From assembly GCA_002347965.1 (NCBI GenBank), contig DDYN01000013.1:18674-82673 (forward strand): a stretch of 64,000 nucleotides of DNA. The letters are read 5' to 3'. The position numbers were made by a program, and so were the translations under genes. The notes below the pieces were generated by a model. That model was not told where the DNA came from, did not search any database, and saw nothing but the letters and a program-made list of their open reading frames with translations. The DNA comes from Nitrospirae bacterium UBA2233 (GTDB lineage: Bacteria > UBA2233). Shown one piece after another: positions 5,089 to 64,000 of this stretch (position 1 is the stretch's first letter; each line of letters starts with the position of its first letter).

Positions 5089-5089
5089 G

Positions 5090-6539: not shown

Positions 6540-6774
6540 ATATACCTCCTTTGGTTGGTTTGCGCGGAGGCAGGCCCTATCAGCCCGCACTGGCTAGTAT
6601 GTTTAGTTTAGCAAAAACTAGCGCGGGTTTGCACGTGCTATATATTCGGGCTTATTCTGGATTTGACTAGAATCTATTTATATGCCTAAATGAACCTTTT
6701 AAGGAGTAGTTTTGCACCGCGGCAAGCCTAGGTTAACCGGGTCTGTATCTAAACTCAAAAAAAGGAGGAAAACC

Positions 6775-7710: not shown

Positions 7711-7712
7711 GC

Positions 7713-8201
7713 GTGCGAATACTCGTCGTCTGTCACGCGAACACGTTCCGCTCGCCCATGGCTTGGGCCCTCCTTCAGAGGGCCCTTGTACCATGGAGAG
7801 GGCTTTTCGAGCTCGATTCGGGAGGAATCGGAACGCACGCCCGCGAGGGAGGGCTGATGTCGCTAGATGCCAGGCTTTCCCTGAAAGAGGCGGGCATCGA
7901 GCTTGACGAAAACGCCTTCCGCTCGAAGGACTTAAAGCGGCACCCCGAGGCGGTATTCGGCGCAGACTTGGTTATCGCGATGACACAAGAGCAATGCTCG
8001 TTGCTCTTGGACGCATTCCCGGAGATCAACCCTGGCATTGTCCACACCTGGCTCGCCCTTGCCGATGAGTCCGGCGACATCGAAGACCCTTGCGGGAAAG
8101 GCCCCGAAGGGGCTGGAGCATGTCTTCGTGAACTCGAACGAACGCTCCCTTCGGTCGTGAACAATCTTCTTGGGTTAGCCCTAAAATCTTTTACGCCTTA
8201 A
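7713..8201 (+). CDS. Low-molecular-weight protein-tyrosine phosphatase / ArsC-like
   Basis: GTG start 2 nt after the SDR stop. Contains the CX5R P-loop (CHANTFRS). Confidence 0.8.
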   Translation: MRILVVCHANTFRSPMAWALLQRALVPWRGLFELDSGGIGTHAREGGLMSLDARLSLKEAGIELDENAFRSKDLKRHPEAVFGADLVIAMTQEQCSLLLDAFPEINPGIVHTWLALADESGDIEDPCGKGPEGAGACLRELERTLPSVVNNLLGLALKSFTP

Positions 8202-39747: not shown

Positions 39748-40241
39748 GGCGCTAGCACCCCGAACCGCTCGACGCGAAGCGTATCCCCGACCACGCTTCC
39801 TGTAACCCATAGCGTAGCCCCGGGCTTTGGAAGGGCCTCTTCCCTGAGTCCTCCAACATCCAGCTCAAGCGCTCGGCCTTCGCCGCTCTCAAGGCGAAAC
39901 CTGCCGTCTTCTTTGCGGAGAACCCCCACGAAAGGCCGCTTCCCCGAAATCGACAGGATCGTGTAGTTGCGGACATCGACTTCCGGGTAGGGAACAGACG
40001 GACGAAGCTCCCCCTCTAGCAAGACATGCGCGCCCGGAAGGCCAACGAGCCCCTTCTCCATCTTTCCGGAGAGCCTGACGTGAGTTCCGTCTTCGGTTCG
40101 AAGGAGGCAGACCGCCCTCCCTTTTTCCTCGATGGCGACAAGGGTTCCCGACGAACGGAACACACGTGAAGACTCGCAGCCCAGTGTCAGCAAAGCCATG
40201 CACGACAACAGTCCACACACCCGAGCGAACCTATTTAACAC
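39744..40241 (-). CDS. Hypothetical lipoprotein (~165 aa)
   Basis: A GTG start gives a signal peptide MLNRFARVCGLLSCMALLTLGC with lipobox LTLGC. It lies 8 nt after the stop of the upstream HEXXH gene. Confidence 0.5.
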   Translation of the reverse strand: MLNRFARVCGLLSCMALLTLGCESSRVFRSSGTLVAIEEKGRAVCLLRTEDGTHVRLSGKMEKGLVGLPGAHVLLEGELRPSVPYPEVDVRNYTILSISGKRPFVGVLRKEDGRFRLESGEGRALELDVGGLREEALPKPGATLWVTGSVVGDTLRVERFGVLAP

Positions 40242-42330
40242 GAACGACCGTAACGCCCAAAGGATAGGGCGTTTCCGTGGAAAAGACCACGTTTCGTTCC
40301 TTTGGGCCGTTCGTCGAGACAAGCTCGAAAAACGAAGCGCCTGCCGTTGGGATCACGTTGGCTACGGCTGGAAGCCTCAAGGGCAAGACCGACCCGAAAG
40401 GAACCCACGCTATCGGGTTGTCCCAGTCGAGGGCTGGAGTGCTCGCCGGGATGGACTCAAGCCTTTTAATGTAAGGCCCCGTAAAATATACCCGCCCAAA
40501 CCCGCCAAAGTCTTCATTTCCCGTATCGTTCGGCCCGTAGATTCTGATGCCTACCTCCTGGCCGCTCAAGGGGTCTCTTACGGGCTCTTTGTAATGGTAG
40601 GCTTCCCCCTTGAACCTTTGAACACCCTCCAGCACAAGCGTGGCGTACCAATCCTTCATAAGGTCCGCAAAAGGCCTGTTCGAAGCCTGTTCGATCGCCC
40701 GCATTTCCTTGTTTAGGCCGGAGTAAGAGAACACCCGGTAGAGCCAGGCTATTCCCCCGTTATCGTTGAGAGCTCCGCTCCTTGAAATGCTGGCTCCGCC
40801 AGCCCGGTCGAACAAGTAGCGTAAAAATAAATACCCCAGCCCACGCCTGTAAGGCGAGTCCCCTCCGCCTTCATCGCCAAGATCGTAGCTCACGAACACG
40901 TCCTTGCCAGTCAAGGAAAGGTTTGGAAAGGCCGTCAGGGCGAACAGCGCAAGCTGCTTGGGGCCGGAGGGCTCGGAGCCGTACCCGGAGAGATCCTCGG
41001 CCAGGTACGCCAATGCTTCCGTAAACCAGGTTACGGGTGTGCTCGCAAGCTCCCTGCGCGCGCTCGGTTCTACGATACGGTTGCCGAAGTAGATGAGATG
41101 GGCAAGCTCGTGCGCCATCGTCGCCAGAAGAATCCCGTTTTGACCAGCATCCTCCGGGACGAACGCATAAAACACCTCCCCCTCGTTGCTGAAAGGGTTG
41201 AGGCTTTCTTCCGGCGCGTCAGAATCGGCCATGTTGGGGAACAAATCGGTCATGATTGTAAACCCCGAGGCCTGCGTGCCGTTCAACACGGGCGTCAGGA
41301 ACACAATGACCTTACCGTTTCCGTCTACGTCCGTAGGCGCCCCGATAACCTGCATATCCCGCGGAACAATCGTCTCGTTGGCGACACGAACGAGCGCATT
41401 GAGCGCATCGTCCGAAAATCCTTGGGCTTCGGCATCAAGATATAGGTCTACATAGCTTCCTTGGGAAATACGCCTTGCCGGCCGCTCAAGCGCGCTACGG
41501 CCTCCCGACTGGATCACGCCGTTTTGCCATTTTGGGTCCAGGTCAAGCCCCGTCACATCCACGTAGAACGTCCGCATGTCGCCATCTCGTGCCGAAGGCA
41601 ATGAGGGCTCCTGAGAGGGGGATGTCTGCATGGCCCCTTCCGACTGCTCCTGGTTCTTAATAGGGGCAACCTGCAGTGACAACCCATCAGGGGTGGGTGC
41701 TTGTCGCCCAGGCTCGGTTAGAGCAGGGGCAGTCTCCTGCGCAGACTGAGCAGGCGGCTTGACGGCAGCCTGCGGGGCGACTGGAACCGCCACGGGAATC
41801 AAGATGGGGGGAACGGCTAAGCTCACGTGGGCCTGTGCAAGCGGTCCAATGTCCGCGTTAAACAACCGGGCGAGGGCCTTCTGCCTTGACCGGTCGAAAA
41901 GAATCCTCGCCGAGCCGGAGGCAATCGTTTCCTGCTGCGTTTCCATGGCAAACGGGTTTACCGACATGGGGTTCTGCCAGTCGTGCACGCCCGAGGGCCT
42001 CGACAAAAGAAAGCGGAAGCTGTGCCCTTGAAGCTTCAGCTGGTAGGTTGGATCGCCCAAATTGGCGTTGGCCGGGTTTGGGACGGGCGTCACGTAGCTT
42101 GCAAGCCCTTGGGATTTGTCGACATCCGGAAAATACGGGTCGGCGTGTACGATGACCACGTACGCCTCTTCCCCTTTTGGCTCCGGAAAAACCAACGAGG
42201 CTGACCCGGAGGGCGTAGGGACGTTGTAGGACTCTCCCGCGCTTTGATTGATTCGGTAGGTCAACCCAAACACGTGCATCGGGAAAAGCAGCAGAAGCCC
42301 AAGGAAACCCATTGATCTAAACAAGGTCAT
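40231..42330 (-). CDS. Secreted putative zinc metallopeptidase (HEXXH + downstream Glu, gluzincin-like), 699 aa with a Pro/Ala-rich linker
   Basis: Signal peptide. HELAH, then about 20 aa further on TEALAYLAED. Strong AGGAGGAGG RBS. Paralogous to the adjacent 515-aa ORF. Confidence 0.6.
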   Translation of the reverse strand: MTLFRSMGFLGLLLLFPMHVFGLTYRINQSAGESYNVPTPSGSASLVFPEPKGEEAYVVIVHADPYFPDVDKSQGLASYVTPVPNPANANLGDPTYQLKLQGHSFRFLLSRPSGVHDWQNPMSVNPFAMETQQETIASGSARILFDRSRQKALARLFNADIGPLAQAHVSLAVPPILIPVAVPVAPQAAVKPPAQSAQETAPALTEPGRQAPTPDGLSLQVAPIKNQEQSEGAMQTSPSQEPSLPSARDGDMRTFYVDVTGLDLDPKWQNGVIQSGGRSALERPARRISQGSYVDLYLDAEAQGFSDDALNALVRVANETIVPRDMQVIGAPTDVDGNGKVIVFLTPVLNGTQASGFTIMTDLFPNMADSDAPEESLNPFSNEGEVFYAFVPEDAGQNGILLATMAHELAHLIYFGNRIVEPSARRELASTPVTWFTEALAYLAEDLSGYGSEPSGPKQLALFALTAFPNLSLTGKDVFVSYDLGDEGGGDSPYRRGLGYLFLRYLFDRAGGASISRSGALNDNGGIAWLYRVFSYSGLNKEMRAIEQASNRPFADLMKDWYATLVLEGVQRFKGEAYHYKEPVRDPLSGQEVGIRIYGPNDTGNEDFGGFGRVYFTGPYIKRLESIPASTPALDWDNPIAWVPFGSVLPLRLPAVANVIPTAGASFFELVSTNGPKERNVVFSTETPYPLGVTVVRVK

Positions 42331-42347: not shown

Positions 42348-43895
42348 CTACGGGACAAGGTAAACCGCAAGCAAGCCAGAGTCGCCTCGAAACGTGACGT
42401 CTACGTAGACCGAGGAAGAAGCAGTCGGGTTAAAAAACCGTGCGCTGCCCCCTTGAACCGTCCAGCTTCCAGACGGGTCCGGCTCGAACGCTGGCCCATT
42501 GAACGGAATCGTAACCATGTTCCCCTTGCAGTTATCGCAGTTAACCGATCTATTCCCTCTAAGCGCAATACCCACGGTCTGGCCAGTAACGGCGTCTTTT
42601 TTGGGCGGGTCGTAACGGAACCCTTGCTCTTCAAGGCCAAGCATCCCGTCGGCTATGAGCGTGGCAACCCAGTTCACGAACAACTCCTTAAACGGCCTAC
42701 CTGTTGCCTTCTCGAGGTTAGCCCTTCCTGAGAGCCCGCTCGATAAAAGTTTACGGGTAAACGTTGCACCTCCTTTATCCACAAGATTTCCCGTAGTGTC
42801 AAACCCGGCAGCCCCTCCTGCCTGCTCGAACAGGTAGCGAAGGAACAAGTAGGCTGCCCCGCGCTGGGCAGCCGTGTCGGTATTTCCGCCAGCATCCGGC
42901 CCTGTCAAGGAGGCATCGGGGGCGGATTGGAGGTATTCGAACGACATGGCGGGCGGTCCGTTACTATCATCGCCAAGCCCGCAGTTGTCCTCGGCCATGT
43001 ATGAAAGCCCCTCGTTAAGCCAGACTTCCTCCGGTACGGCGTTCGGGATTTCATAAATACGTCTGGAGAAATTAATCAGATGCTGGTATTCGTGCGCAAT
43101 CGTGGCGTACAGCAAATTCCTAGAAACCCGGCCGGCAACAGGAGTCGCGTAGATGATCTCCTGCTGGTTGCTGGATGGGTTTGAAAAGATTCGCCTAGGA
43201 AAGAGGTCGGCCGCACTGAAGAACCCCACGGCACCGCTGTTTTTGAACCGATCGCTCAAAAGTACGCTGAAGCGAGCATCCCCGTTGATGTCCGATTCCT
43301 GGCCGAATAGAAGCCTGTCCCTGGGTACGATGAGATCGTCTATCCTACGAACAAGCTCGGGGACAAGCCCGGGCTCTACAGAGATACCTTCTTCTTGGTA
43401 TACGTTGGCGTACTTGGTTTGCTCGATCAGCTTCGCTTGAATAACCATTACACCCTTGCCCGGTACAAGGCCCGTCAGGTCAAGATAGAAAGGGGTCGTG
43501 CCCGGGCTTGAGCCGGAAGCCATGGGCATGGCCTGGGTCTTGCGCTGCCTTTGAAATCGCTCGAGCCCTAGGACTTGCCATTCCCGCTGCCTTAAAACGG
43601 ATTCGAACTCACCCATCCTTGGGTCGCGAGGCAAATCAACCGGAAAAGAAAGCCCCAGCATCTTGACCAAGGGGCGCATGGCGGGAATTTCCGCGTTAAA
43701 CACGGTCGTCCCGATACCATCGGGCGAGGCCACTGCGAAGGCCTTAAAATCCGCCCCGGAAAGCGGCACCTTGACCGTACCCTTGGCCTGGAGCGTCCTG
43801 AGCTCTAGCGCCCGCCCTGTCAGCGGGGTTACAAGCGAAAGCAGGCAGCAAGCCAAGAAAAAACGCTTGAGAAACCCTATTTTTTGGGATTCCAC
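42348..43895 (-). CDS. Secreted putative zinc metallopeptidase (HEXXH + Glu, gluzincin-like), 515 aa; paralog of 40231..42330
   Basis: Signal peptide. HEYQH...NEGLSYMAED, plus blocks shared with the paralog (IVPRD, DLFP, YLFLRYLF-x-AGG). Confidence 0.6.
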   Translation of the reverse strand: MESQKIGFLKRFFLACCLLSLVTPLTGRALELRTLQAKGTVKVPLSGADFKAFAVASPDGIGTTVFNAEIPAMRPLVKMLGLSFPVDLPRDPRMGEFESVLRQREWQVLGLERFQRQRKTQAMPMASGSSPGTTPFYLDLTGLVPGKGVMVIQAKLIEQTKYANVYQEEGISVEPGLVPELVRRIDDLIVPRDRLLFGQESDINGDARFSVLLSDRFKNSGAVGFFSAADLFPRRIFSNPSSNQQEIIYATPVAGRVSRNLLYATIAHEYQHLINFSRRIYEIPNAVPEEVWLNEGLSYMAEDNCGLGDDSNGPPAMSFEYLQSAPDASLTGPDAGGNTDTAAQRGAAYLFLRYLFEQAGGAAGFDTTGNLVDKGGATFTRKLLSSGLSGRANLEKATGRPFKELFVNWVATLIADGMLGLEEQGFRYDPPKKDAVTGQTVGIALRGNRSVNCDNCKGNMVTIPFNGPAFEPDPSGSWTVQGGSARFFNPTASSSVYVDVTFRGDSGLLAVYLVP

Positions 43896-51791: not shown

Positions 51792-52382
51792 TCAATGCCT
51801 TAAGTGGCGCAAGGCTCTTAGAATCCCCTCTTCAAGGGGGATGCCAGATTGATCCCCCAATGCCTCTCGGCACGCCTTCTGGGCCTCAGCGTGGGAAAAC
51901 CCGAGCCCTTTGAGCGCCACGACGACTTCATGGAGAGTTCCATCCGGCAAACCGCCGGACATGGCAAGCTCGAGCTGCCCAACCAACCCCTTTAACTCAA
52001 GGAGAATGCGTTCCGCCATCTTCCTGCCAATACCTTGCACCTCCATAAAGGCGTTAGGATCCATTGCAAGAATGGCATGAGCAGCCTGGGCGGGGGTTTT
52101 ATGCGAAAGGATGGCCAACGCAAGCTTAGGGCCTAGCCCGCTTACCTTCAGAAACAGCCGAAACATGCGTCTTTCTGGCTGCTCGAGGAAGCCGAAAAGT
52201 TGGAAGGAGTCCTCCTTCAGCACCTCGTGAACAAAGAGCCGCACCTCGCTTCCCTCCGGGGGCAAGGCGGCCAGCGTCTGCCTGCTTACCCAAAGCTCCA
52301 TCCCAACCTGCCCTTCAAAGAGAGCAAGGGTCAAGCAGTTCTCCGAGACAGCCTCTAGGCGGCCTGACAGAAAATCAATCAT
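51792..52382 (-). CDS. ruvA: Holliday junction DNA helicase RuvA
   Basis: OB-fold N-terminus, HhH pair and a C-terminal RuvB-binding domain. Confidence 0.9.
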   Translation of the reverse strand: MIDFLSGRLEAVSENCLTLALFEGQVGMELWVSRQTLAALPPEGSEVRLFVHEVLKEDSFQLFGFLEQPERRMFRLFLKVSGLGPKLALAILSHKTPAQAAHAILAMDPNAFMEVQGIGRKMAERILLELKGLVGQLELAMSGGLPDGTLHEVVVALKGLGFSHAEAQKACREALGDQSGIPLEEGILRALRHLRH

Positions 52383-53654: not shown

Positions 53655-55040
53655 TCACCTAAAGCTCCTGGAGGCGTCATGGCAAAGGTAGCAATCCTGG
53701 CTGTGCTGTTTTTCTGGGGTTTGGGTGCAACCGCTTTGGAAAACGAGCGGGACCTCCCAGCTCTTTTCGTAAACCTTCGAATGAAGGACTATCCGTCCGT
53801 TTTCCTCCCTTACGTGCGGGAGCGGGTCGTTCCCGTCCGCCACGACGACCCTATCCCCTAGCCTGAGCGCAGGAAACCCCTTTCTGTAGCTCCTTATCAT
53901 CCAGAACGCCTCGTTGGCCCCCGTTTCGAGCGTTCGGAGGTCTGGCGGAGAGGACCTCGTCCCGTGGCAAGTCTTGCAACGTACGCGCTGGAGGCTTGCC
54001 TTGTTCCCCGTAAGATGGCCATCCCCCATCACTTCGGTACGCGTATGGCAATCGATGCACTCAAGCTCCACTTCGCAGCGGGCGAACTGGGCCTGGGGTA
54101 TGTAGTAGGCCTTGAAGCGGTCCGCCTTGGGGTCCGTGATGGAAGCCCTTGGGATGTCGGTCCTGTAGAAAAACTTAAGCCTTAGGGAATGTACCCCTTG
54201 GTTGTGGCAGGCGTTGCAGGCCGTGTAGGGGATGGCCGTCGTCATGCGGTGGTAAGGGGCATGGCCTGTTTCGCCCTTATTGATGGTCCTGTCTTTTCCT
54301 AAATAGCGCCCATCCGGCCTGAAGGGAACATGGCAGGCCGAACAGCCTGAAAGGTGGCGAGCCTTTGGGTTGTTTTGGTCGTAGCCCGAGTGGAGATGGC
54401 AAAACTCAAGGCAGTTTTTGACGAAGCGCGCTTTGAGAGGATGTTCCCAAGCCTTAAAAGGGGCTAGGCCGTTTCCCAATAGAGCCCGTTTTTTAAGCGG
54501 TTCGGGGGCTAGGCCAAAGGGGTCCCTTGTCTCCACGACGCCGAACCTGGCGAGCTCATCGCTTTGCCAACCCAGGGCAAAAGCCGTTTTTGATACTTCC
54601 GAGGCCTTGGTGGCCATGAGCGTCAAGGGAACGCTTATAGATGGGCTCCTTTTTGGGTTGTCCTGCCTTGTATGACAACCCTCAACCCCGCAGGTCTTTT
54701 CCTGGACCCTTAAAGAAGCCGGGTTCCTCTTCCCCAAAAGCCCCCTGTGGGCCCTTGTCTTGGAGAGCGCCAGGGCACTGCCCCCATGGCAGATGACGCA
54801 GCCGAAGGCGCTGATTGGGTGTGCCGGGCTGATCTCTTCGATCCCAGAATGGCATGTTAAACAGCGCTCTGGCTTACCCGTAAGCGTGGGCACGATCGCT
54901 TTTGGCTCGGGGCTAAAGCGCTTCCAAGGCCGCCTTGAATCCCGGATGAAAACAAGAGCGATCGCCGCCCCAAGAAAAACGATGCCAAAGAGGGCCGTAA
55001 GACTCCAGGCATCTTTTGCCCCCCTTCCCAAACCCCTCAA
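53655..55040 (-). CDS. Membrane-anchored multiheme cytochrome c (~9 heme sites)
   Basis: Seven CXXCH motifs plus one CX3CH (CLEFCH) and one CX4CH (CGVEGCH). N-terminal TM anchor. The candidate TTG start overlaps the upstream stop (TTGA). Confidence 0.75.
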   Translation of the reverse strand: MRGLGRGAKDAWSLTALFGIVFLGAAIALVFIRDSRRPWKRFSPEPKAIVPTLTGKPERCLTCHSGIEEISPAHPISAFGCVICHGGSALALSKTRAHRGLLGKRNPASLRVQEKTCGVEGCHTRQDNPKRSPSISVPLTLMATKASEVSKTAFALGWQSDELARFGVVETRDPFGLAPEPLKKRALLGNGLAPFKAWEHPLKARFVKNCLEFCHLHSGYDQNNPKARHLSGCSACHVPFRPDGRYLGKDRTINKGETGHAPYHRMTTAIPYTACNACHNQGVHSLRLKFFYRTDIPRASITDPKADRFKAYYIPQAQFARCEVELECIDCHTRTEVMGDGHLTGNKASLQRVRCKTCHGTRSSPPDLRTLETGANEAFWMIRSYRKGFPALRLGDRVVVADGNDPLPHVREENGRIVLHSKVYEKSWEVPLVFQSGCTQTPEKQHSQDCYLCHDASRSFR

Positions 55041-55399
55041 CTCCAATAAAACCAAACCCTAAAAGCGAGTGTGGCAAGAACCCAAAACGCAACTATTCCT
55101 ATTCCCAGACTTTTTGCGAGCCTATGCTTCTTTGAGGGCAAAAAGGGCAGCACCGAAAGAAGACAAACGGCGAACAACGGCAAAAAAACTCCGGCCAAAA
55201 GCGGGGTGAAGATAAGCAGAAGCCCCTGGATGGCAACGAAGATCCACGGTGCCGGGGCGATTTTTCCCCGTGATGGCTCGACGGTCAAGCCGGAAGCAAT
55301 AAGGGCCGCGGCGAGGGCCAAAAGCCCCAAGGCCAACAACAGCACGGCCCCTTCGCGCCTTAAAAGCTCCTTTCTATCGATAAGCCCCTTCACAGGCAT
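55037..55399 (-). CDS. Cytochrome b C-terminal / subunit-IV-like protein of a Rieske-cytochrome b complex
   Basis: Three TM helices and a P-x-W-[YI]-F motif (PAPWIFVAIQGLL, compare PEWYF). ATG at 55399. Confidence 0.6.
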   Translation of the reverse strand: MPVKGLIDRKELLRREGAVLLLALGLLALAAALIASGLTVEPSRGKIAPAPWIFVAIQGLLLIFTPLLAGVFLPLFAVCLLSVLPFLPSKKHRLAKSLGIGIVAFWVLATLAFRVWFYWS

Positions 55400-56043
55400 C
55401 GGCTCACTCCGCCATCCCGACGCACACGGTAAAAATGCCACGCGCACAACCCAAGCGCAAAAAAGGGCAACACCCCACAATGCAGCGTGTAGAGCCTAAG
55501 CCCAGCACTATAGCCAACAGGATCGGCACCAAAAAGGAGGGTTTGCAAGGTTTTACCCAACAGGGGCACCTCCCCCAAAAGCCCAAACGCCACCCTTGAG
55601 GCATCCATCGCCCTTTCATCGCCGATCAAAAGATAGCCGCTGAAATCAAGGAAGAACGCAAGCAAAAGAAGCCCCATGCCTATGAGCCAGTTGCCCTGCC
55701 TTGGCGGGGCAAAAGCACCCGAGGCCAGCACCCTAATAGTATGGCCAACGATCGCAACGACCATCAGCTGGCCCGATAGAAAATGCAGGCTTCTTATGAA
55801 GGACCCGTAGGCAGCGGCCTCTTCGATCGTAACGACAGAACCCATGGCCTCCTTGGGGGTTCCAGGCCGGTAAAATGGCATCAAAAGAAGCCCCGTAAGG
55901 ACCAACACCAGGAAAAACCCAAAAGACAGCCCCCCTAGACAAAGCGTAGGCCAAAGCCCTGCTACGCCCTTAGGGATCCTGGGCGGGTGAACGTGCGCAA
56001 GGAACCCTAGCGCCCCGTTTCGGCTCGACCCCAAAGCCTTCAC
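55390..56043 (-). CDS. Cytochrome b6-type (N-terminal, 4-TM) subunit
   Basis: His pairs spaced 14 and 15 residues in helices B and D, as in b6. Conserved Cys in LCLGG (the heme ci site in b6f-type complexes). GTGA overlap with the Rieske stop. Confidence 0.8.
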   Translation of the reverse strand: MKALGSSRNGALGFLAHVHPPRIPKGVAGLWPTLCLGGLSFGFFLVLVLTGLLLMPFYRPGTPKEAMGSVVTIEEAAAYGSFIRSLHFLSGQLMVVAIVGHTIRVLASGAFAPPRQGNWLIGMGLLLLAFFLDFSGYLLIGDERAMDASRVAFGLLGEVPLLGKTLQTLLFGADPVGYSAGLRLYTLHCGVLPFFALGLCAWHFYRVRRDGGVSRCL

Positions 56044-56474
56044 AGACGAAACCCAGGGTCCACCTCTGAAGCGAGTAGGGCCCGCAAGCGAGATTCGCTC
56101 ACCTTAATCAGCTTAAGGCGCTTAAGCGGCCTGGGGGCCGGCCCCTTTAGGACCTCTCCTTTTGTGCTGTAGACGCTCCCGTGACACGGGCAAGAAAACG
56201 TGGCGCTGGATGTGTCGAAACGAACAGGACAGCCCAAATGGGTGCAGCGGTTTAAAAGCGCGTAGGAACCCTTTTGGTCGCTCACAACCCAAGCAAACTC
56301 TCGCTGACCAAGGAGCGGCTCCCCGCTGGTTCGAGGGTCTTTAACGAGATCAAAGTCATCAAACTCGGGGCGCTTTCCTTCAGGAAGCGAGCCAAGGTAG
56401 CCCAAAAAGACCCTTAAAAACCCCAATCCGGGCAACACCAAAAGGGTTTTTACGATATTCCGTCTTGCAAACAT
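56040..56474 (-). CDS. Rieske [2Fe-2S] protein
   Basis: CTHLGC...CPCHGS boxes. An RR-containing N-terminal TM/Tat-like segment (FARRNIVKT). ATG at 56474 with a GAAGG RBS. Confidence 0.8.
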   Translation of the reverse strand: MFARRNIVKTLLVLPGLGFLRVFLGYLGSLPEGKRPEFDDFDLVKDPRTSGEPLLGQREFAWVVSDQKGSYALLNRCTHLGCPVRFDTSSATFSCPCHGSVYSTKGEVLKGPAPRPLKRLKLIKVSESRLRALLASEVDPGFRL

Positions 56475-56496
56475 CCGAACCTTCGGGCGTTCAAAC

Positions 56497-56535
56497 AGTT
56501 CCAGCCGGGGTAAAAAACGCCCCCGACTGGAACTG
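56497..56535 (-). other. Intercistronic stem-loop between the triheme cytochrome c and Rieske genes
   Basis: CAGTTCCAG-C-CGGGG-taaaaaacg-CCCCG-A-CTGGAACTG: a 14-bp interrupted stem with no following U-run. Confidence 0.4.
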
Positions 56536-56581
56536 TCGCACAAATAATTCAAGCCCAGAGGACTAACGCCAAGCAAAAACC

Positions 56582-56929
56582 CTACTTTGCCCCGTAGCTG
56601 GCCGCCAGCTGCTGCCAGTCGGTAGGATGGCACGAGCCGCAGTTGAACTGCAAATCGGAGTAAGGGTCTACCATGCCCTGGTGGGCCCTAGCCTCGTCGG
56701 TGGCAAACGGCTGGCCGCCGTGGCAGTAATCGCAGGCATCCAGCTGGGCATGGTCGGTGTGGTACTGGCCCACGTTGGAGATGGGCATTTGCTTTTTGAT
56801 CTCATGACAGCTCTTGCAAGAGCTCACGCTGGACCCACACTGGGCGTTGACATCGCTGTCGGGTAAGCAGCTGAATGTAACGGCGGCCGTCAGCAAGAAA
56901 GCAGGGAAAACATAGGTCGATCGTTTCAT
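56582..56929 (-). CDS. Small periplasmic triheme cytochrome c (115 aa)
   Basis: Signal peptide and three CXXCH motifs (CKSCH, CDYCH, CGSCH). AAGGAGG RBS. ATGA overlap with the upstream stop. Confidence 0.75.
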   Translation of the reverse strand: MKRSTYVFPAFLLTAAVTFSCLPDSDVNAQCGSSVSSCKSCHEIKKQMPISNVGQYHTDHAQLDACDYCHGGQPFATDEARAHQGMVDPYSDLQFNCGSCHPTDWQQLAASYGAK

Positions 56930-57636
56930 GTCGTTTGACCTCCTTTTTTGATGAGTTTTTCATACCAAAGCGGGTGGTGGTGCCTGATGAACTCCAGGTC
57001 CATTTCCCCGTTCCCGAACATCGCCCGGAGCGACTCCCTGTTTATGGGATGAGTGCCCAGGTATACGTGTACGATGAGTGCCAGGGCAGTCAGAAGGAAC
57101 ACTGTGTCGTGAACAAACCTAGAAAACGACCAAATCGCGGGGGAGAAGGAGTCTCTAAACCAAAGGACAAAGCCTGAAAGGGAAAGGAGGAGCATGGCCA
57201 AAATCATAAACCAAGCCAGCGCCTTTTGTCCTATGTTGTACTTTCCGAACCTTGGAGGCTGAAAGAATACATAGCAGCGGATAAGCTCCCTAACCCCATC
57301 CCATGCGCCAGAAAGCGAGTACCTTTCGGGCCAGATGTGCCACTCGCGCACGTGCATGAGCTGCCCCAAGCTAAAGGGGATCGCGGTGAGGAAGAACAAA
57401 AGGGCCGCTACCCTGTGCAGGACCCTTGCTGTCTGAACACCTCCGGCGACGATCGCCTCGTAGGGCTGCTGCTGACCGAAGAAGCTCACTGGAACACCGA
57501 ACACGTAGGCGATCCAATCAAAGGCATGGCTTAAGATAGGCAAGCCAGATAGTATAAAAAGCACCATGAAATGGATAATGTGCTTATGAAACCAGATTTG
57601 TAGCGTGTTAAACGCCTGAACCCTGCTAGTCTCCAT
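56926..57636 (-). CDS. Membrane di-heme cytochrome b subunit (FdnI / PhsC / Ni-Fe hydrogenase cytochrome b family)
   Basis: 4-5 TM helices with His in TM1 and TM2 and an H-x13-H pair in TM4. Confidence 0.75.
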   Translation of the reverse strand: METSRVQAFNTLQIWFHKHIIHFMVLFILSGLPILSHAFDWIAYVFGVPVSFFGQQQPYEAIVAGGVQTARVLHRVAALLFFLTAIPFSLGQLMHVREWHIWPERYSLSGAWDGVRELIRCYVFFQPPRFGKYNIGQKALAWFMILAMLLLSLSGFVLWFRDSFSPAIWSFSRFVHDTVFLLTALALIVHVYLGTHPINRESLRAMFGNGEMDLEFIRHHHPLWYEKLIKKGGQTT

Positions 57637-58534
57637 CGGTTTCTTCCTGCCTGTTTTCTTCCTTGGCTTGTCCTGAAGTCGTTCCTTGATCCGTCCCTTC
57701 GCCAGCTTCGGCCCCTTGTTCCAAGACGTTACGCCCTTCTTGGTCCCGCGCTACTTCCAGCTTGCGGTTGTAAAGCCAGTAAAGAAAGTGGCCTGTGCAC
57801 GCAAGGGCCGTTAAGCCGGCAAGGCCAGCGCCCCCAACCTTAAGCGGGCCTCTCATGATTGCGGCCGATTTTACCGGGTCTTGTGGCAGCCCGTAGGCCT
57901 CCAAGTCGGCTTCCGGGACAATCGTGAGCCAGCCCGTACGGCCCACATAACCGTTTAACCTTTGAGCCCCGTACACAACGTAGGGCTCACCGTAGCGCTC
58001 AGTGTAAAAACTGGCGCGCTCGTTTGCCTCCTTGAGCACCTCATCCTCCGGCCCCGAGAACATGGCGCCCGTAGGACAAGCCTCGACGCAGGCCGGGACC
58101 AAACCGTTCTCAATTCTGTCAAAGCACAGGATGCACTTATAGGTCTTGTTGGTTTCGGGGTTGTATACGGGCACGTCGTAGGGGCAGGCATCTATGCAAG
58201 ACCTGCAGCCTACGCAGCGCTCCTCTAATATCACTACGGCCCCAGACGGCCTTTTGACTATGGCGAAGGCGGGGCAGATGTCAAGGCACGGGTGGTTTTC
58301 GCAGTGCATGCAATGATGGAACTCGATGATCTGCCTGGCCTTTGGAAAGACGCCAAACTCCTTCAATCGAGGCATCAGGTAATTAAGGTGATGCATAGGG
58401 TGGTTTGCCGTTTGCTCGGACGGAATATGCTGATCCCTCTGAAGGCGAACTCTGTTCTCTACGGAGCAGTTCGTCATGCAAGAAAAACACCTTACGCAGC
58501 TGTGTGTGTCGTAACAGTTTAGGTATCTTTTCAT
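57626..58534 (-). CDS. 4x[4Fe-4S] ferredoxin-type electron-transfer subunit with a C-terminal TM anchor (FdnH-like)
   Basis: Four CxxCxxCxxxCP clusters plus a C-terminal hydrophobic helix. Confidence 0.85.
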   Translation of the reverse strand: MKRYLNCYDTHSCVRCFSCMTNCSVENRVRLQRDQHIPSEQTANHPMHHLNYLMPRLKEFGVFPKARQIIEFHHCMHCENHPCLDICPAFAIVKRPSGAVVILEERCVGCRSCIDACPYDVPVYNPETNKTYKCILCFDRIENGLVPACVEACPTGAMFSGPEDEVLKEANERASFYTERYGEPYVVYGAQRLNGYVGRTGWLTIVPEADLEAYGLPQDPVKSAAIMRGPLKVGGAGLAGLTALACTGHFLYWLYNRKLEVARDQEGRNVLEQGAEAGEGTDQGTTSGQAKEENRQEETDGD

Positions 58535-61068
58535 GACAGTTTCTCGATTTTAACGATGAAGTCTTGTGAAGGATGCCCGGCCGTTATGGGAATAAAATCC
58601 AAACTGTTAACGTGGTTTGGGTTGCAGCCCTCTTTGGAAACGATGGTGAGATATTGCCTGCATGCCATACAAGCCCCGGTCGTCATACTGTAGTAGGTAA
58701 GGAGGGCATCGGGGTGTATTAACTCGCTCACTCTAACGACAGAGCTGTAGCACTTCTTGTTTGGGTCGAGAGCGTTTGTTATCCTAACCTTATCACCGTC
58801 GCTAAGGCCCAGCTCTTTCGCCTTTAGCGGGTTTATCATCACTGAAGAGCCTCCCATGATGTCGGCGAATTCCTTAATTATGGCGTTATTCCGAGTTTGT
58901 GCCCCCGTAAACGTGGCCAGGGGAAAGAACGCGCTTATGGGAACAAACTCCCCCTTTTCTAGCTTCGGCTTGAGCCCCATGTATCTAGGCGGGGTCCAGG
59001 TTGGCAGCGGAGAGGCGTGGAATGCGTAAGGATAACCCTTGTTTTTCAGCTTTTCGTGGGTTTCGGCAAGAAGAAGGCTGTATACCTCCAGCTTTCCTGT
59101 AGGCGTTCCCATCGCTTGGGGAAGGTAGAACTTTTTAGACCCCGCCCATGCCCCCTGCTCCAACAGAATGTCCAAGGGGGGTATTGTTTTTCTTTCACTT
59201 TCGGTAACACCGCGTATTCCTGCATACTGTTTTTCCCACACGGCCTTGATGCCCCGCTCTTCGAACTCCGAGTAGTGCTGAGCGTACTCTTCTTCGGTCA
59301 GGACCCTCTTGGCCAGTTGATTGAAGATCCAGTATCCGTCCTTTGATTCGAAAAGGGGTTCGACAGCCTTCCTGTTGACACCTATCGTCGGTATGGGAGC
59401 CTTAAACTTGGTGCTTAGAGCCTCGTCTCGCTCTAGGTACGTCGCATCCGGCAGGACGATGTCGGCGTTCATCACCGTTTCGTCAAAATAAGGGGAAATA
59501 ACGACGATCAGCTCGAGCTTATTTAAAGCTTTGGCGATATCCCAGCTGCCGGCAGACCCCCCTACGACGTTTTGTCCGTGGATAACGGCCACCTTGGAGC
59601 GGTATGGCTTATCCTCCAGAAGAGAGCGGGCGTAAGTCCTTCGCCCCTCGACGGGGTTCGATAGAATCCAGCCGGGCTCGTTCTCGATGTAGTAGTCTAG
59701 AATAGACTGTCCGCTTGGCTTGGGTGCGTGGATAAAATGCCCCAAGCCGCAAGGGTGCTGCCAGAATAACCCCCCCTCCCTGCCGAAGGCGCCTAGGAGC
59801 AGGTTTATCGTAGCCATGGTGAGTTTCTCACGCAGCGAGCTGAAGTAACGCTCCGAGCGGTACCCCCTATCTAAGACTACCCTTGGTTTATAGCGGTTAA
59901 GGTTTTCTGCTAGCTCGATGACCTTAGCGGCCGGCACCGTGCTGATACTTTCCGCCCATTCGGGTGTAAACTGCTTAGCGTTGTCGGCTAGCATCTGAAG
60001 ACCGGTCTTGCAAGCCGTTTCTTTACCGTCAATAAGCTCCTTAAAGCTTCCGAACAACGCCGGGTCTTTGGCCTTAGATTTGAACGTTACGCTCCTTGTG
60101 GCCTTGTCAAAAACTAGGTAATCGAGGGCCTTACCGTTTTGCCTAGTCCCTACGGGCAAGAGGGTGTTTGCATCAATCAGGATGTCGGCGTTCGTGTAAT
60201 CGCGCAGGTATTCTTCATCGTAAAACTTTCTATCCATGATAACGTTTAGGATGCCAAGGAGGAGGGCGGCATCGCTTCCGGGCCTGATCGGGACCCACTC
60301 GGCATCGCCGCCGGCTTCAGCCGGCCTTCTAGGGTCGATCACGACAACCCTCATCCCGTTTCGTTTGGCCCTTCCAAAAGACACCCCCCAAGAGTAGGTT
60401 ACTATCGCACCCCCGGGGTTCCTGCCCATCAAAATAGCGTATTCGGAGTTCTCGTAATCCGGCTGGATGGCCCCAGGACCAAGGATTGGAATGCCCGATG
60501 CCTTAGGCCCTCCCATATGGGCGGCAAAACCAAGGCTCGTTGCCCCGGCCCAGCAGGTGTCTCCGTAGCTGATAAAATAATTGGGGGTGCCGTAGATCTC
60601 GAAGAACTCCTCATCCAGCTCAGGGCCCGAGTGGAACCTCGGCAAATAGGCTACGCTATGCGCCTCGCCCTCATCCCTTAACTCTTTTAGCTTAAGGGCG
60701 ATCTTGTCCAAGGCCTCTTCCCAAGAGACTCTTCGAAACCGCCCCTCTCCCCTTTTCCCTTCCCTGACAAGCGGATACTTGACCCTGTCCGGGCTGTAGA
60801 GCGCCCCTACGGCCGCCCGCGAGCGGCCGCAGACGCCCGGGTAGGGCGTGTGCTTGTTGGATTCAACCCTTACCAGCCTTCCATCCCTCACGACGCCGAC
60901 CGCGGGGCAGAACTGATCGCACATTCTGCACATCAAAGGAATGCGCCTTTCGAGCCCAAAGTCTGTTGCGGATACATCGGCCCTTGCCGGCTCGAAGCTT
61001 ACTGCTTGGCCGCCCAACAGCCCTAAGGCGGATACCTTGAAAAAGGAGCGTCTGTCTATACGAACCAT
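58531..61068 (-). CDS. Tat-exported molybdopterin (Mo/W-bisPGD, DMSO reductase family) oxidoreductase catalytic subunit
   Basis: Twin-arginine signal RRSFFKVSALGLLGG. N-terminal CxxCxxxC...C FeS motif. 845 aa with no in-frame stop. ATG at 61068. Confidence 0.85.
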   Translation of the reverse strand: MVRIDRRSFFKVSALGLLGGQAVSFEPARADVSATDFGLERRIPLMCRMCDQFCPAVGVVRDGRLVRVESNKHTPYPGVCGRSRAAVGALYSPDRVKYPLVREGKRGEGRFRRVSWEEALDKIALKLKELRDEGEAHSVAYLPRFHSGPELDEEFFEIYGTPNYFISYGDTCWAGATSLGFAAHMGGPKASGIPILGPGAIQPDYENSEYAILMGRNPGGAIVTYSWGVSFGRAKRNGMRVVVIDPRRPAEAGGDAEWVPIRPGSDAALLLGILNVIMDRKFYDEEYLRDYTNADILIDANTLLPVGTRQNGKALDYLVFDKATRSVTFKSKAKDPALFGSFKELIDGKETACKTGLQMLADNAKQFTPEWAESISTVPAAKVIELAENLNRYKPRVVLDRGYRSERYFSSLREKLTMATINLLLGAFGREGGLFWQHPCGLGHFIHAPKPSGQSILDYYIENEPGWILSNPVEGRRTYARSLLEDKPYRSKVAVIHGQNVVGGSAGSWDIAKALNKLELIVVISPYFDETVMNADIVLPDATYLERDEALSTKFKAPIPTIGVNRKAVEPLFESKDGYWIFNQLAKRVLTEEEYAQHYSEFEERGIKAVWEKQYAGIRGVTESERKTIPPLDILLEQGAWAGSKKFYLPQAMGTPTGKLEVYSLLLAETHEKLKNKGYPYAFHASPLPTWTPPRYMGLKPKLEKGEFVPISAFFPLATFTGAQTRNNAIIKEFADIMGGSSVMINPLKAKELGLSDGDKVRITNALDPNKKCYSSVVRVSELIHPDALLTYYSMTTGACMACRQYLTIVSKEGCNPNHVNSLDFIPITAGHPSQDFIVKIEKLS

Positions 61069-61109
61069 CGAATAAAGCCTACCTGTTTGTTTTTGTTGTT
61101 GGTTAACTA

Positions 61110-62405
61110 TCAATAAACCACGGGGAACCCGGCGGCCGTCCAGTTGGTCGTCCCGCCGATTAAGTCGTACACCTGCGTAAATCCCTTCTCGATGGCCATC
61201 ATCGCGGCCTGCGCCCCCCTTGGCCCGTTGGCACACACAAAGCAGATCGGGGCGTTCTTGTCGAGCTCGCCGGAATCCAAAAACTGCTCAACGTCCTCAC
61301 CGAGCTCGTGGAACTGGATCTTGGCAATATGCATCCCGTTATACTCGAGCGCACTGCGTACGTCCACCACGGTTAGGTTCGGACCCTCTCGCCACTTCTC
61401 GTACAGCTGGCTTGCGATCCAGGAGTGCATGTACTTGCCCTGCATCCATCCGTAATTGGCGTAGTCGAGCATGGCGTTGACCGTGCCTATTAACGTGGGC
61501 CCGAAGTTTGGCGCCTCGACCCAGTTTTCAGACCCGGGCTGCTCCATACCTATAGCCCGGTTGATGCCGGCGGCCCTTCCTTGGACGCCAAGGAACGTGT
61601 TCAGCGTTTGCTCGGCAAGAGCTTGGTCTTTGGTGTTGACGATTTTTGCGGATTTTTTGAAGACAAGGTCCGGATAGGCATCGGCTAGGCTAGGAGCGCT
61701 TTGGTAGCCGAAGGCGTCCTCTGACTGGGCCACAACCTGGCCTTTTTGGTAGACAACCGGCGCTTGACCCTTTGTCACATCAACGCCCTGCAAAGACAAG
61801 GGCATGCCGGCCCCGATCCATTCTCCGAGTCCGCTATTCAGGTAGTAAACGTTGTCGTAACCATACGTAACCGTATGGTAGCCCGCTGTAAGGGCTCGGA
61901 TCCCTCAAGCACAGATGAGAATCTCTGGCTCGTTAGGGTCGAGCCTGCCCGATTTCACGAACTCATCGTACTCATCGAGCGGGACGTTGATCGAGCCCGG
62001 GATGTGCACGCCGTCGAACTCGGCCTTCGAGCGGATGTCCACGATCTGGACCTCTTGGCTTGACATCATCCTGCGCATCTGGGCCGCCGTTATCGGGTTT
62101 GCCGTTACCCCTTCAAGCTTTAACTCCAACGGCGCTATGGACGCCTCCATAAAATAGCGCATCTGGCCCAGCAAGAGCATGAAGAACGCGCCCACGTCGG
62201 TCGTGGCGATCTGGTTGGGCGTGAAGGAGAACATGTTGCCAGCTAGCGGTATGAACATATCGACCATCGGCTGGGTCAAGCCCCGGATTATCAGGTCGTT
62301 CCTCGTTACCTCGTGGGCGCTTGCTTTGGTCGCACCCATAAGCGGGGCTGCGCTAAAGATAAGCGGCAGGCCTAGGGCCAGCGCCTTGAACCATCGCTTT
62401 CGCAT
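61110..62405 (-). CDS. Periplasmic tandem-rhodanese-domain sulfurtransferase, read as a single frame through an in-frame TGA (candidate selenoprotein, or a pseudogene)
   Basis: Signal peptide and AAGGAGGAG RBS. Domain 1 active-site loop reads I-C-A-[TGA]-G-I-R. The conserved rhodanese sequence continues in frame for 33 codons to the next ORF, whose domain 2 loop is C-A-N-G-P-R. Confidence 0.55.
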
Positions 62406-62434: not shown

Positions 62435-62566
62435 CTACACCAGGCTTGTCAGCGAGGTGCTGGTAGCCGGAAAAGAGTTCGACAAAAGATGCACAAAGGC
62501 ATTCAGAAAGGCATTTAAGAGCTCGCTTAAGAGCCCAGGATCGATCGGGGCAGGCTGGAATCCCAT
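62435..62566 (-). CDS. Putative sORF (43 aa)
   Basis: TAAGGAGG RBS 7 nt before the ATG. Too short for the ORF track. Paralogous to the adjacent sORF. Confidence 0.3.
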   Translation of the reverse strand: MGFQPAPIDPGLLSELLNAFLNAFVHLLSNSFPATSTSLTSLV

Positions 62567-62582: not shown

Positions 62583-62720
62583 TCAGCCCATTAAACTAGT
62601 AATCGGGCTCGTCAAAAACCCAGAGAGCTGATCGCTCACACCAAGAAGCCCGGGCAAGCTCGGGGCCAGGTTGTTGACGAAGAACTCGTAGACCGTGTTC
62701 AGGAACTCTTCCGGTGTCAC
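62583..62720 (-). CDS. Putative sORF (45 aa, GTG start)
   Basis: A GGATGGAGGAG stretch precedes the GTG. Shares an A-P-x-x-P-G-L-L ... T-S-x-x-T-S-L motif with the downstream sORF. Confidence 0.25.
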   Translation of the reverse strand: MTPEEFLNTVYEFFVNNLAPSLPGLLGVSDQLSGFLTSPITSLMG

Positions 62721-62801
62721 TGCTCCTCCATCCTTTCTTTAGTGACATACATTATGTATTATGTGCTATATGTCAAGATTATTATATACTACATACTGTA
62801 T

Positions 62802-62818
62802 GTCAATAGTCTATTGAC
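62802..62818. promoter_or_regulatory. 17-bp perfect palindrome GTCAATAG-T-CTATTGAC in an AT-rich divergent control region
   Basis: Direct sequence reading. Additional TATGTCAA direct repeats occur at about 62769 and 62799. Confidence 0.35.
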
Positions 62819-62964
62819 ACTCTAAGCATTATGATGTTAGAAATTCTTAAATATCGCCGCTTAGCAAGGGGGTTGCGAGTTGGGAGCCGATGCTGTTTAG
62901 TACTATATCTCTAATCTACTAAAAGATGACTACGCAAATTAGCACAAAGGAGGAGTTGGTGGGG

Positions 62965-64000
62965 ATGAGGCGCGGTCTTTTAAGGTTGATATCTTGTTTC
63001 ATTGCTGCCGTATTGGCGTTGGTTGGCCTTGCTATCTACTCTAAAAGCTTCAGCTATGGCGACCCCGAGTTCTTGGCCCTGGAAAAACAGCTCCAAAGCC
63101 CCCTTGTAGACGCGTTAACCCTTAGATCATGGGTCGAGAATGAGAATAAACACCCCTTCGGCTATCCCGTTGTCGTGGTAGACACCTCTTCGGCTGGCTA
63201 CAACGAAGGGCATATACCCGGCGCTGTCGGCATTTCCTGGGTAGAGTTCTCGGAGTTCAGGAGCGATGGCCCGGCGTTTTTAGACCCCATGGTGGCGAGC
63301 GGGAGTCATGTAGATGATCTGCTTAAGCGCATGGGGGTACGCAGTAAAGAGACCATCGTCGTCTTCACGTCAAACGACCCTTCCGTGGGTTACGACATGG
63401 CCCGGGCCTTCTGGACGTTTTACTACTGGGGCTTTGCCCCCAGGTACATCAAGGTTCTAGACGGGGGGAACGAGGCCTGGGCTAAGGCAGGCTTTGAGCT
63501 GGCTAAAGAGCCTTTCAGCCCATCGCCAGGGGTTCTTTCCGTACGAAACGTCAACGAGCCCGGCCAGATGGAAGGGGCCAGGAAGTCCATCGGGGATATG
63601 CTAAGGCTCGTAGACGACGGCAAGACCCTGGACGGCTCCGTTCAGGTCCTTGCCGTACTACCCCCGAATACGCCCTTACCAGGCTCTAGAGAGCGGATCA
63701 CGTTAAACGAATTCGGCGCCCTTTACGCCTACTTCAGCGGAAAGATCGAGGGTGCAAGGCAACTCATGTTCGGTTGGGATGCGCTCTTTAAGCCAGACGG
63801 TACGTTCAAGACAAAAGAGGAGCTCCTGGGTCTTTTCTTGGGGCTTGGGCTCGACCCAAACAAGCCTACGATCACCTACTGCAACAGGGGGAATGTGGCA
63901 AGCCTGTATTGGTTCGCGCTTAAGTTCATCGCTGGATTCAAGGATGTGGCCGTTTACGACGGCTCGTGGAGTGAGTGGGGAAAGCTGCTTGCCTACGAGC
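62965..64000 (+). CDS. Two-domain rhodanese (thiosulfate/3-mercaptopyruvate sulfurtransferase-like) with an N-terminal signal/anchor; 3' end lies beyond the window
   Basis: AAGGAGGAG RBS. The ATG at 62965 (or the GTG 6 nt upstream) is followed by a hydrophobic segment. The catalytic loop YCNRGNVAS sits in the second domain. No stop codon before the window end. Confidence 0.8.
   Translation, partial: MRRGLLRLISCFIAAVLALVGLAIYSKSFSYGDPEFLALEKQLQSPLVDALTLRSWVENENKHPFGYPVVVVDTSSAGYNEGHIPGAVGISWVEFSEFRSDGPAFLDPMVASGSHVDDLLKRMGVRSKETIVVFTSNDPSVGYDMARAFWTFYYWGFAPRYIKVLDGGNEAWAKAGFELAKEPFSPSPGVLSVRNVNEPGQMEGARKSIGDMLRLVDDGKTLDGSVQVLAVLPPNTPLPGSRERITLNEFGALYAYFSGKIEGARQLMFGWDALFKPDGTFKTKEELLGLFLGLGLDPNKPTITYCNRGNVASLYWFALKFIAGFKDVAVYDGSWSEWGKLLAYE

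Follow-up and report, generated by a model that had tools for sequence, protein, structure and literature searches.

A 64,000-nucleotide stretch of contig DDYN01000013.1 from Nitrospirae bacterium UBA2233 (GenBank assembly GCA_002347965.1), referred to below as the window, raises the question of whether an in-frame TGA codon ends a rhodanese gene or is decoded as an amino acid within it. The gene is located at 61110..62405 on the minus strand and encodes two rhodanese domains in tandem. An earlier note, made from the sequence of the window, had named it a candidate selenoprotein, and this proposal was supported by the conservation of the TGA codon among relatives, the existence of a cysteine (Cys) form, selection on the reading frame past the codon, and a downstream hairpin resembling a selenocysteine insertion sequence (SECIS). 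On these comparative grounds, the UGA at codon 167 is very probably decoded as selenocysteine (Sec).

Reading frame and conservation of the TGA codon

On the minus strand, 62405..61110 forms a single reading frame that is interrupted only by the TGA at 61907..61905. The upstream open reading frame (ORF), at 62405..61905, encodes 166 amino acids, and the frame then remains open for 264 more codons past the TGA. The earlier note had described two annotated ORFs in the same frame separated by one TGA, and both this description and the translation that it gave across the junction (...EILICA*GIRALTAGYHTVTYGYDNVYYLNSGLGEWIGAG...) were reproduced. The full frame would yield a product of 431 residues with Sec proposed at residue 167. 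The gene is terminated by a TGA (61112..61110) that is followed immediately by a TAG, and this tandem stop spans 61112..61107.

From the N-terminus, the 431-residue protein has a likely signal peptide and a helical region ahead of rhodanese domain 1, and a linker containing a second helical region then leads to rhodanese domain 2. The candidate signal peptide is of the Sec type and covers residues 1-30, with an A-S-A cleavage site judged by eye (MRKRWFKALALGLPLIFSAAPLMGATKASA before the cut and HE after it). The Pfam model Rhodanese (PF00581) matched the protein in two domains with an E-value of 8.6e-33 and a score of 113.3 bits, against a gathering cutoff of 22.2. Since the first of these stretches, residues 106-197, includes the TGA-encoded residue 167, rhodanese domain 1 is continuous through the TGA, which agrees with the uninterrupted catalytic loop that had been read across the codon. 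The active-site loop of domain 1 is C165-A166-U167-G168-I169-R170, where U denotes the TGA codon, and that of domain 2 is C-A-N-G-P-R; the TGA takes the place of the Asn in the second loop, also as described before. The proposed selenocysteine codon (61905..61907, minus strand) is located at position +2 of the loop and is matched by TGA at the same codon in the DNA of relatives. The TGT codon of Cys165 (61911..61913, minus strand) encodes, judging from the sequence, the canonical catalytic cysteine of domain 1. In a 33-sequence rhodanese alignment, C164 of the Cys-form homolog P0001 was nearly invariant (at least 90%), and it was present in every distant relative read. An AlphaFold2 model of P0001 built from the same number of aligned sequences was poor (mean predicted local distance difference test score, 53.3) and was discarded. 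Among the in-frame stops of the window that have 60 or more open codons on either side, only 61905..61907 falls within one protein domain. The two annotated ORFs would thus be one gene for a two-domain rhodanese that is probably exported.

Relatives were gathered by protein searches and exact-sequence look-ups on many metagenome contigs from about 15 independent assemblies (JGI, ENA, NCBI WGS, and Logan), which were produced with differing pipelines. Among 185,579 species-representative genomes, which were scanned twice, no relative of the rhodanese was found. In all, nine distinct variants were obtained around the TGA site, with pairwise amino-acid identities of 55-97%. TGA was present at the identical codon in eight of the nine, and this was confirmed at the DNA level in 19 loci including the window, and in addition in locus L023. 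The remaining variant carried TGC (Cys) and was limited to one clade, represented by L001 at the DNA level and by proteins P0001, P0334, P0336, and P0332, all of which read ICACGIR; P0001, P0334, and P0336 are full-length homologs encoded by one ORF of 432-433 amino acids. TGA was retained in the most distant ortholog (L007/L008), which shares 58% amino-acid identity with the window protein and has a G+C content at third codon positions of 0.43 versus 0.745. Because this distant ortholog keeps TGA and TGC is limited to one near-identical clade, TGA is, by comparison of the available sequences, ancestral, and Cys replaced it later in a single sublineage.

The TGC-bearing gene of L001 (557..1855) and the TGA-bearing gene of L023 (10001..11299) differ at 58 nucleotides, all of which lie between nucleotides 96 and 515, and are identical from nucleotide 516 to the end. 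With the differences confined in this way, the codon switch sits in a recombinant background; L001 is a recombinant, and its identity with L023 from nucleotide 516 onward points to a recent switch between TGA and TGC. Protein P0336 is also a mosaic, with an N-terminal part resembling L001 and a C-terminal part resembling L002. Such mosaic copies point to recombination between gene copies or between strains.

The reading frame past the TGA shows the pattern of a translated sequence. By the Nei-Gojobori method, the ratio of nonsynonymous to synonymous substitution rates (dN/dS) between the window and L002 was 0.23 before the TGA and 0.16 after it, with dS about 0.5, and the ratios for other variant pairs were similar. 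No extra stops were present after the TGA in the complete variants, and the downstream frame closed at 264 codons in most of them, the exceptions being L001 and L023, which have a two-codon insertion, and L007, which has 258 codons. Changes were mostly synonymous in the 33 codons from the TGA to the first in-frame ATG, where Ser is encoded by AGC, TCC, TCT, TCA, or TCG, Leu by CTG, TTG, or CTT, and Gly by GGA, GGT, or GGC. Based on these substitution patterns, the UGA is almost certainly translated. Comparison with orthologs therefore favored the candidate named in the earlier note in three respects, namely a TGA kept in eight of the nine variants down to 55-58% identity, a naturally occurring TGC form, and purifying selection downstream of the codon.

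Hairpins downstream of the TGA

Bacterial SECIS (bSECIS) elements were evaluated using limits of 3-9 nt for the apical loop, 4-16 bp for the stem, 16-37 nt for the spacing between UGA and loop, and -7.5 kcal/mol or lower for the minimum free energy (MFE). In addition, the consensus has a G as the first or second base of the loop, with G or U as the usual next base (PMC13188914). Downstream of the TGA at 61905..61907, a SECIS-like hairpin with the sequence ACCAUACG-GUUA-CGUAUGGU (61860..61879, minus strand) was found in both the MFE and the centroid folds and was invariant in all nine variants. It has a stem of 8 bp, a free energy of -11.0 kcal/mol, and a GUUA loop that starts 33 nt past the UGA and takes up positions 34-37, and the hairpin as a whole spans 26-45 nt downstream. 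All four of its values lie within the published bSECIS limits (PMC13188914). When a strict ungapped version of the test was applied to the 1490 TGA triplets of the window, 4.1% passed and 1.1% were equally stable.

A second hairpin, AGCCC-UUACAGC-GGGCU (61880..61896, minus strand), was present in the MFE fold upstream of the SECIS-like hairpin, beginning 9 nt past the UGA and abutting it. The earlier note had regarded both hairpins as compatible in position with a SECIS. Both do exist, and the second along the transcript fits the bSECIS model; the first taken alone does not, since its loop lies 13 nt from the UGA and begins with UU, without G among the first two bases. The stem of this upstream hairpin is invariant, its loop occurs as UUACAGC, UAACAGC, UUGUAGC, and UCGUAGC, and it may serve as a lower or auxiliary helix. 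Both hairpins were predicted with ViennaRNA, in which a segment of 63 nt had an MFE of -19.7 kcal/mol (z = -1.96), and the L002 version gave z = -2.85.

Conservation at synonymous sites was concentrated at these structures. In the nine-variant codon alignment, 427 sliding windows of 12 codons were ranked by synonymous difference, and the eight lowest all have their first codon between +3 and +10 relative to the TGA, with values of 0.04-0.11 against a median of 0.31. Between the window and the distant L007, the longest run of identical nucleotides in the 1.3-kb gene is 38 nt; counted from the TGA it begins 18 nt in, and it contains the SECIS-like hairpin. The second-longest run, of 17 nt, lies over CTCATCTGTGCTTGAGG and includes the TGA itself, and the remaining runs are at most 11 nt. 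At residues shared by the window and L007, the codons were identical for 11 of 12 in the hairpin stretch versus 74 of 214 elsewhere (Fisher P = 1e-4). From the UGA to the end of the hairpin, all six variable alignment columns are unpaired and belong either to the spacer or to the upstream hairpin's loop (P = 0.003), and at third codon positions in the same interval three of five unpaired sites vary versus none of ten paired sites (P = 0.02). These patterns indicate that the SECIS-like element is under selection at the RNA level. The SECIS question was thus answered positively by published structural criteria and by synonymous-site conservation, with no covariation.

Alternatives to selenocysteine

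A sequencing or assembly error in the window is ruled out, because the same TGA is present in independent JGI, ENA, NCBI WGS, and Logan assemblies. Had the gene instead been inactivated by a nonsense mutation, an alternative that the earlier note listed together with readthrough, a TGC or TGT codon for Cys would have been converted to TGA and the gene would be dead or dying. The change from TGC needs a single base substitution, and a TGC form is indeed in existence; the same TGA, however, is found in variants that differ from one another by up to 45% of their residues, including the low-G+C ortholog, and in about 15 assemblies, so that one clonal artefact does not account for it. On the tree, TGA is ancestral and TGC arises only in one near-identical clade, and the frame downstream of the codon has a dN/dS of about 0.16 and no extra stops. 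A second possibility is that two proteins are made separately, an N-terminal fragment of 166 amino acids and a C-terminal rhodanese initiated at an internal ATG (61805). All public gene calls seen split the gene in this manner, into parts of 165-168 and 229-243 amino acids. The N-terminal product would nevertheless stop within the catalytic loop and lose the G-x-R as well as the helix and strand that complete the rhodanese fold, the 33 codons that lead from the TGA to the ATG show mostly synonymous changes in frame, the internal start varies or is absent (P0002 begins with MNSG and P0168 with MGAG), and the Cys form is a single ORF of 432-433 amino acids. Because the frame past the TGA is under purifying selection and the truncated product would break the fold, a pseudogene is effectively excluded and separate expression of two proteins is very unlikely.

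What the comparative data establish is translation and a conserved RNA element, and not the identity of the inserted residue, which leaves some room for readthrough of the UGA by another route. A near-cognate tRNA could insert Trp, Cys, or Arg, stimulated by the hairpin, or TGA could be reassigned throughout the lineage. Genome-wide reassignment was rejected from the use of TGA in the window, where it acts as a stop: among the 91 stop-to-stop ORFs that reach 150 codons or more, the final codon is TGA in 29, TAA in 30, and TAG in 32. Several of the TGA stops form ATGA overlaps with the next start (for example, 58531-58534), conserved genes such as lepA contain no internal TGA, and the G+C content of 55% is unlike that of known TGA-reassigned lineages. 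Against near-cognate insertion, the natural replacement at this site is Cys, which is the signature of Sec sites, and the hairpin matches the SelB-type SECIS model in both loop sequence and spacing. We know of no established bacterial mechanism for hairpin-stimulated readthrough without Sec at a single conserved, sense-critical site. Decoding of the UGA as anything other than Sec is accordingly considered improbable, although somewhat less so than separate expression of two proteins.

Several observations weigh against Sec at this codon. None of the 13 base pairs of the two hairpins varies among the variants, so no covariation was seen and the covariation test was uninformative. A scan of 61780..61960 against Rfam by E-value gave no SECIS family. 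The hairpin is intact also in the Cys form L001, so that a role other than that of a SECIS could account for part of its conservation. In more distant relatives, which have the same post-loop signature as the window protein, Ser, Asp, or Gly occupies the +2 position (loops CCSGMR, CQDGFR, CKSGFR, CVSGVN, and CQSGAR); Cys or Sec at +2 therefore looks like a clade-specific gain and not like a catalytic residue of the whole family. The genes selA, selB, selC, and selD were not found in the 64-kb window, where Pfam and NCBIfam annotation of about 50 ORFs was used, or in the fetched loci, a result that has no bearing on the whole genome. A tRNA-Sec was likewise absent from the window and from the 12 fetched loci that were searched. 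As background, Sec decoding exists in Nitrospirae according to a 2026 review, and selC may be located within selB in this group.

An Rfam scan of the whole window at gathering thresholds returned two tRNAs and nothing else. Among in-frame TGA codons of the window with a SECIS-like hairpin and long coding sequence on both sides, no second selenoprotein candidate was found. The in-frame TGA at ruvA/ruvB (51792..51794, minus strand) has 196 and 343 open codons on its two sides, and ruvB starts six bases on; it was rejected as an ordinary gene boundary with no recoding.

Known systems, gene neighbourhood, and proposed function

Rhodanese-related sulfurtransferases have been predicted bacterial selenoproteins since 2005 (Zhang & Gladyshev 2005), so the earlier note was right to place them among the reported families. 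In the field, a Cys homolog aligned with UGA (a Cys/Sec pair) is used as a criterion for a selenoprotein. The 2026 review lists five rhodanese selenoprotein forms, of which form 3 (also called COG0607 form 2) has the CxU motif and corresponds to the NCBIfam model NF041203 (rhodanese_LYCAU). The novelty that had been implied for the window protein is reduced by this listing, in which the Cys-x-Sec rhodanese loop is already a predicted subfamily. As in NF041203, Sec in the window protein would be found two residues past the catalytic Cys (L-Y-C-A-U in the model and L-I-C-A-U here), and an in-frame UGA is followed by a SECIS or SECIS-like element in the coding region. In contrast, the protein described by NF041203 has one domain and a length of about 126 amino acids, whereas the present protein has 431 residues with two rhodanese domains, each after a helical region, and has in addition a likely signal peptide and a respiratory-operon context. 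The whole protein scored 66.7 bits with NF041203, domain 1 scored 36.5 bits, and domain 2, which has no Sec, scored 37.2 bits, against a cutoff of 115 bits, and the score was no better than those of the generic GlpE or MoeB rhodanese models. Membership in NF041203 was rejected on the basis of the score and the different architecture. Since rhodanese selenoproteins are classified in the field by domain and Sec motif, the window protein belongs to the known CxU kind; that kind is established as a predicted class, and the window protein is an unannotated member of it with a distinct architecture and context. Its CxU motif may have originated independently from that of NF041203. The other rhodanese selenoproteins, which have the motifs UxxS, UxxG, UxU (from Olavius symbionts), and UxxxxU (TsoB), also have Sec in or at the active-site loop of a rhodanese fold. 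There, Sec stands in for the catalytic Cys itself, whereas the window protein retains this Cys and would have Sec as an addition at +2.

The rhodanese gene lies in a cluster transcribed from the minus strand. The earlier note placed a molybdopterin oxidoreductase in the same operon, and one with a Tat signal (DRRSFFK) is encoded downstream at 58531..61068. This PsrA/PhsA-like protein of 845 amino acids was recognized by Pfam, NCBIfam, and structure matches; its score with the NCBIfam PhsA model was 279 bits, under the cutoff of 694. Its closest solved structure is Thermus chain 2vpw_A (E-value, 1.7e-59), which was deposited as 'thiosulfate reductase' and which we take to be PsrA of the Thermus polysulfide reductase. 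The molybdoenzyme genes continue with a 4Fe-4S subunit (57626..58534) and a membrane cytochrome b subunit (56926..57636), both identified with Pfam and NCBIfam. An Ext-like module (53655..56929) follows, also on the minus strand. It consists of a small CxxCH cytochrome c (56582..56929) and a Rieske protein (about 56040..56633), both recognized with Pfam, an ExtP-like cytochrome b (55390..56043; NCBIfam ExtP, 193 bits with a cutoff of 290), a small membrane protein (55037..55480), and an ExtM-like multihaem cytochrome c (53655..55055; NCBIfam ExtM, 163 bits with a cutoff of 800). The gene order of this module is repeated in L001, L009-L011, and L023. The rhodanese gene stands beside a Psr/Phs-type molybdoenzyme in the window, L001, L009-L012, and L023, and probably in L007.

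Upstream of the rhodanese gene, two small conserved ORFs on the same strand complete what is referred to here as the cassette. The first cassette gene (62583..62720) has a GTG start and a ribosome-binding site, encodes 45 amino acids, and is found in L001, L002, L019, L021, L022, and the divergent L007; its product had no Pfam match, as tested with an overlapping frame. The second (62435..62566) has an AAGGAGG ribosome-binding site, encodes 43 amino acids, and is kept in every locus that reaches this far. The two products resemble one another and have C-termini rich in Ser and Thr, and they may be partners or precursor-like peptides. A weak promoter-like site, TTGACA-17-AATAAT (62778..62806, minus strand), lies upstream of both small ORFs and matches the consensus at 11 of 12 positions; one such site was found versus 1.9 expected in shuffled sequences.

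In the mechanism proposed from these data, SelB carrying Sec-tRNA(Sec) would bind the 8-bp hairpin with the GUUA loop and deliver Sec once the UGA is in the ribosomal A site. The product would bear Sec two residues past the catalytic Cys of domain 1 (C-A-U-G-I-R), and this spacing would place a thiol and a selenol in one anion-binding loop. The rhodanese might then take up sulfane sulfur in the periplasm from polysulfide or thiosulfate, or possibly selenium. Sulfur would be held as a Cys persulfide, which could be attacked by Sec or joined to it in an S-Se or S-S(n)-Se bridge, and would be handed to the adjacent PsrA-like molybdoenzyme, to the Rieske/cytochrome b/multihaem module, or to both. 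Judging from gene order, the most likely role of the rhodanese, with about an even chance of being correct, is to serve the respiratory module in the periplasm as a carrier of sulfane sulfur (or selenium) or as an activator.

Two points count against this functional assignment. The role is deduced from gene neighbourhood alone, and the molybdoenzyme genes are absent in some loci. L002 lacks all three molybdoenzyme genes, and its rhodanese gene is followed directly by genes for a small cytochrome c (69% identical to that of the window), a Rieske protein, a cytochrome b, and a multihaem cytochrome. The L002 locus (4899..8169) has a molybdopterin fragment of 176 amino acids upstream on the opposite strand, and L013 is likewise cited for the absence of the molybdoenzyme. 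Because some loci are without its three genes, the molybdoenzyme is an optional neighbour. In L014-L017 and L025, the cassette stands beside unrelated genes.

A broader reading, less probable than not and put forward tentatively, is that the exported tandem rhodanese is an independently evolved and uncurated selenoprotein family, encoded as a portable cassette with the two conserved proteins of about 43 amino acids, in which Sec at +2 would make a catalytic relay or reductase for sulfane sulfur (or selenium) out of a passive persulfide carrier; as part of the same joint claim, the cassette would plug into differing respiratory modules for sulfur or selenium in the periplasm, either a molybdoenzyme of the Psr type or an Ext-like complex with Rieske, cytochrome b, and multihaem components. 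If this were true, it would be the first sulfur-respiration system in which the selenoprotein is the rhodanese itself.

Domain 2 matched Sud of Wolinella succinogenes (PDB 1qxn) with an E-value of 2.4e-7. Sud is a periplasmic polysulfide-sulfur transferase that acts as a sulfur carrier for the polysulfide reductase PsrABC in Wolinella. The two proteins would be alike as exported rhodaneses with a Psr-type molybdoenzyme, which is the partner of Sud and is encoded by the adjacent gene here. They differ in that Sud is a single-domain protein with Cys only and is no selenoprotein, and the partnership proposed here is deduced from gene order alone.

The closest analogue at the level of the system is the extHIJKLMNOPQS cluster of Geobacter sulfurreducens, in which ExtH is a rhodanese lipoprotein, ExtKL is the pentahaem selenoprotein polysulfide reductase MccSep, ExtO is a Rieske protein, ExtP is a cytochrome b, and ExtM is a multihaem protein. 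This cluster has been linked to selenite/tellurite and sulfur reduction. In both systems, a rhodanese gene stands beside genes for Rieske, cytochrome b, and multihaem cytochrome c proteins, and one selenoprotein is encoded or proposed. The selenoprotein is the cytochrome in Geobacter and would be the rhodanese here, where a Psr-type molybdoenzyme is present instead. No homolog of the ExtI porin or of ExtKL was seen in the operon of the window with Pfam and NCBIfam, and with this absence and the ExtP and ExtM scores below their cutoffs (193 versus 290 and 163 versus 800), assignment to the ext cluster was rejected.

Two further systems appear similar by description. SrrE and SrrF, from the selenite reductase operon of Bacillus selenitireducens, are described as rhodanese-domain proteins encoded with a Psr/Phs-family molybdoenzyme, and a tandem rhodanese of Desulfitobacterium hafniense is described as having two active-site domains and as being encoded with a molybdoenzyme of the same family. 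Unlike the present protein, none of these rhodaneses is reported to contain Sec.

Every public gene call seen (JGI, ENA, NCBI, and Logan) labels the split parts 'hypothetical protein' or 'rhodanese-related sulfurtransferase'. Since no curated selenoprotein model detects the gene, annotation pipelines will keep mis-annotating it, and a dedicated model would correct this. In the present cluster, a probable Cys-x-Sec rhodanese has as its neighbours a molybdoenzyme of the polysulfide/thiosulfate reductase type and a cytochrome module resembling Ext, and the host is an uncultured member of a deep-branching lineage labelled Nitrospirota. The LepA of this organism shares 97% identity with that of a metagenome-assembled genome labelled 'Nitrospirota bacterium' (GCA_034190365.1), and the named relatives that come next are about 63% identical. 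The rhodanese would also add to recent evidence from MccSep (PMC13510729) for a direct use of selenium in sulfur respiration in the periplasm. The naturally occurring Cys form and the proposed Sec form, which differ through recombination in otherwise identical sequence, offer a ready pair for probing the effect of Sec at +2. To our knowledge, no CxU rhodanese has been characterized biochemically so far.

Several other observations were made on the cassette and its surroundings. In L021, the cassette is followed by a gene of the C_GCAxxG_C_C family (1764..2438), and this family is listed in the 2026 review as having selenoprotein forms. In L025 (5584..7614), an IS605 OrfB/TnpB gene and a resolvase gene lie near the cassette. 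Many independent assemblies (L009-L018) end at one point, 238-292 nt upstream of the rhodanese gene, and three cassette types occur together in sample ERZ27315072; the shared breaks and the co-occurring types suggest a repeated, multi-copy cassette that confuses assemblers. In the window, no ORF longer than 66 amino acids is present in 62720..64000. Similarity between the window and the otherwise syntenic L023 ends about 300 nt upstream of the rhodanese start, where L023 encodes an aldo-keto reductase of 499 amino acids. Elsewhere in the window, two adjacent minus-strand ORFs (40231..42330, 699 amino acids, and 42348..43895, 515 amino acids) had no Pfam match at an E-value below 1e-6, and their products have N-terminal hydrophobic segments. 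The presence of LptF/G, LpxC, and OmpA argues that the host is diderm.

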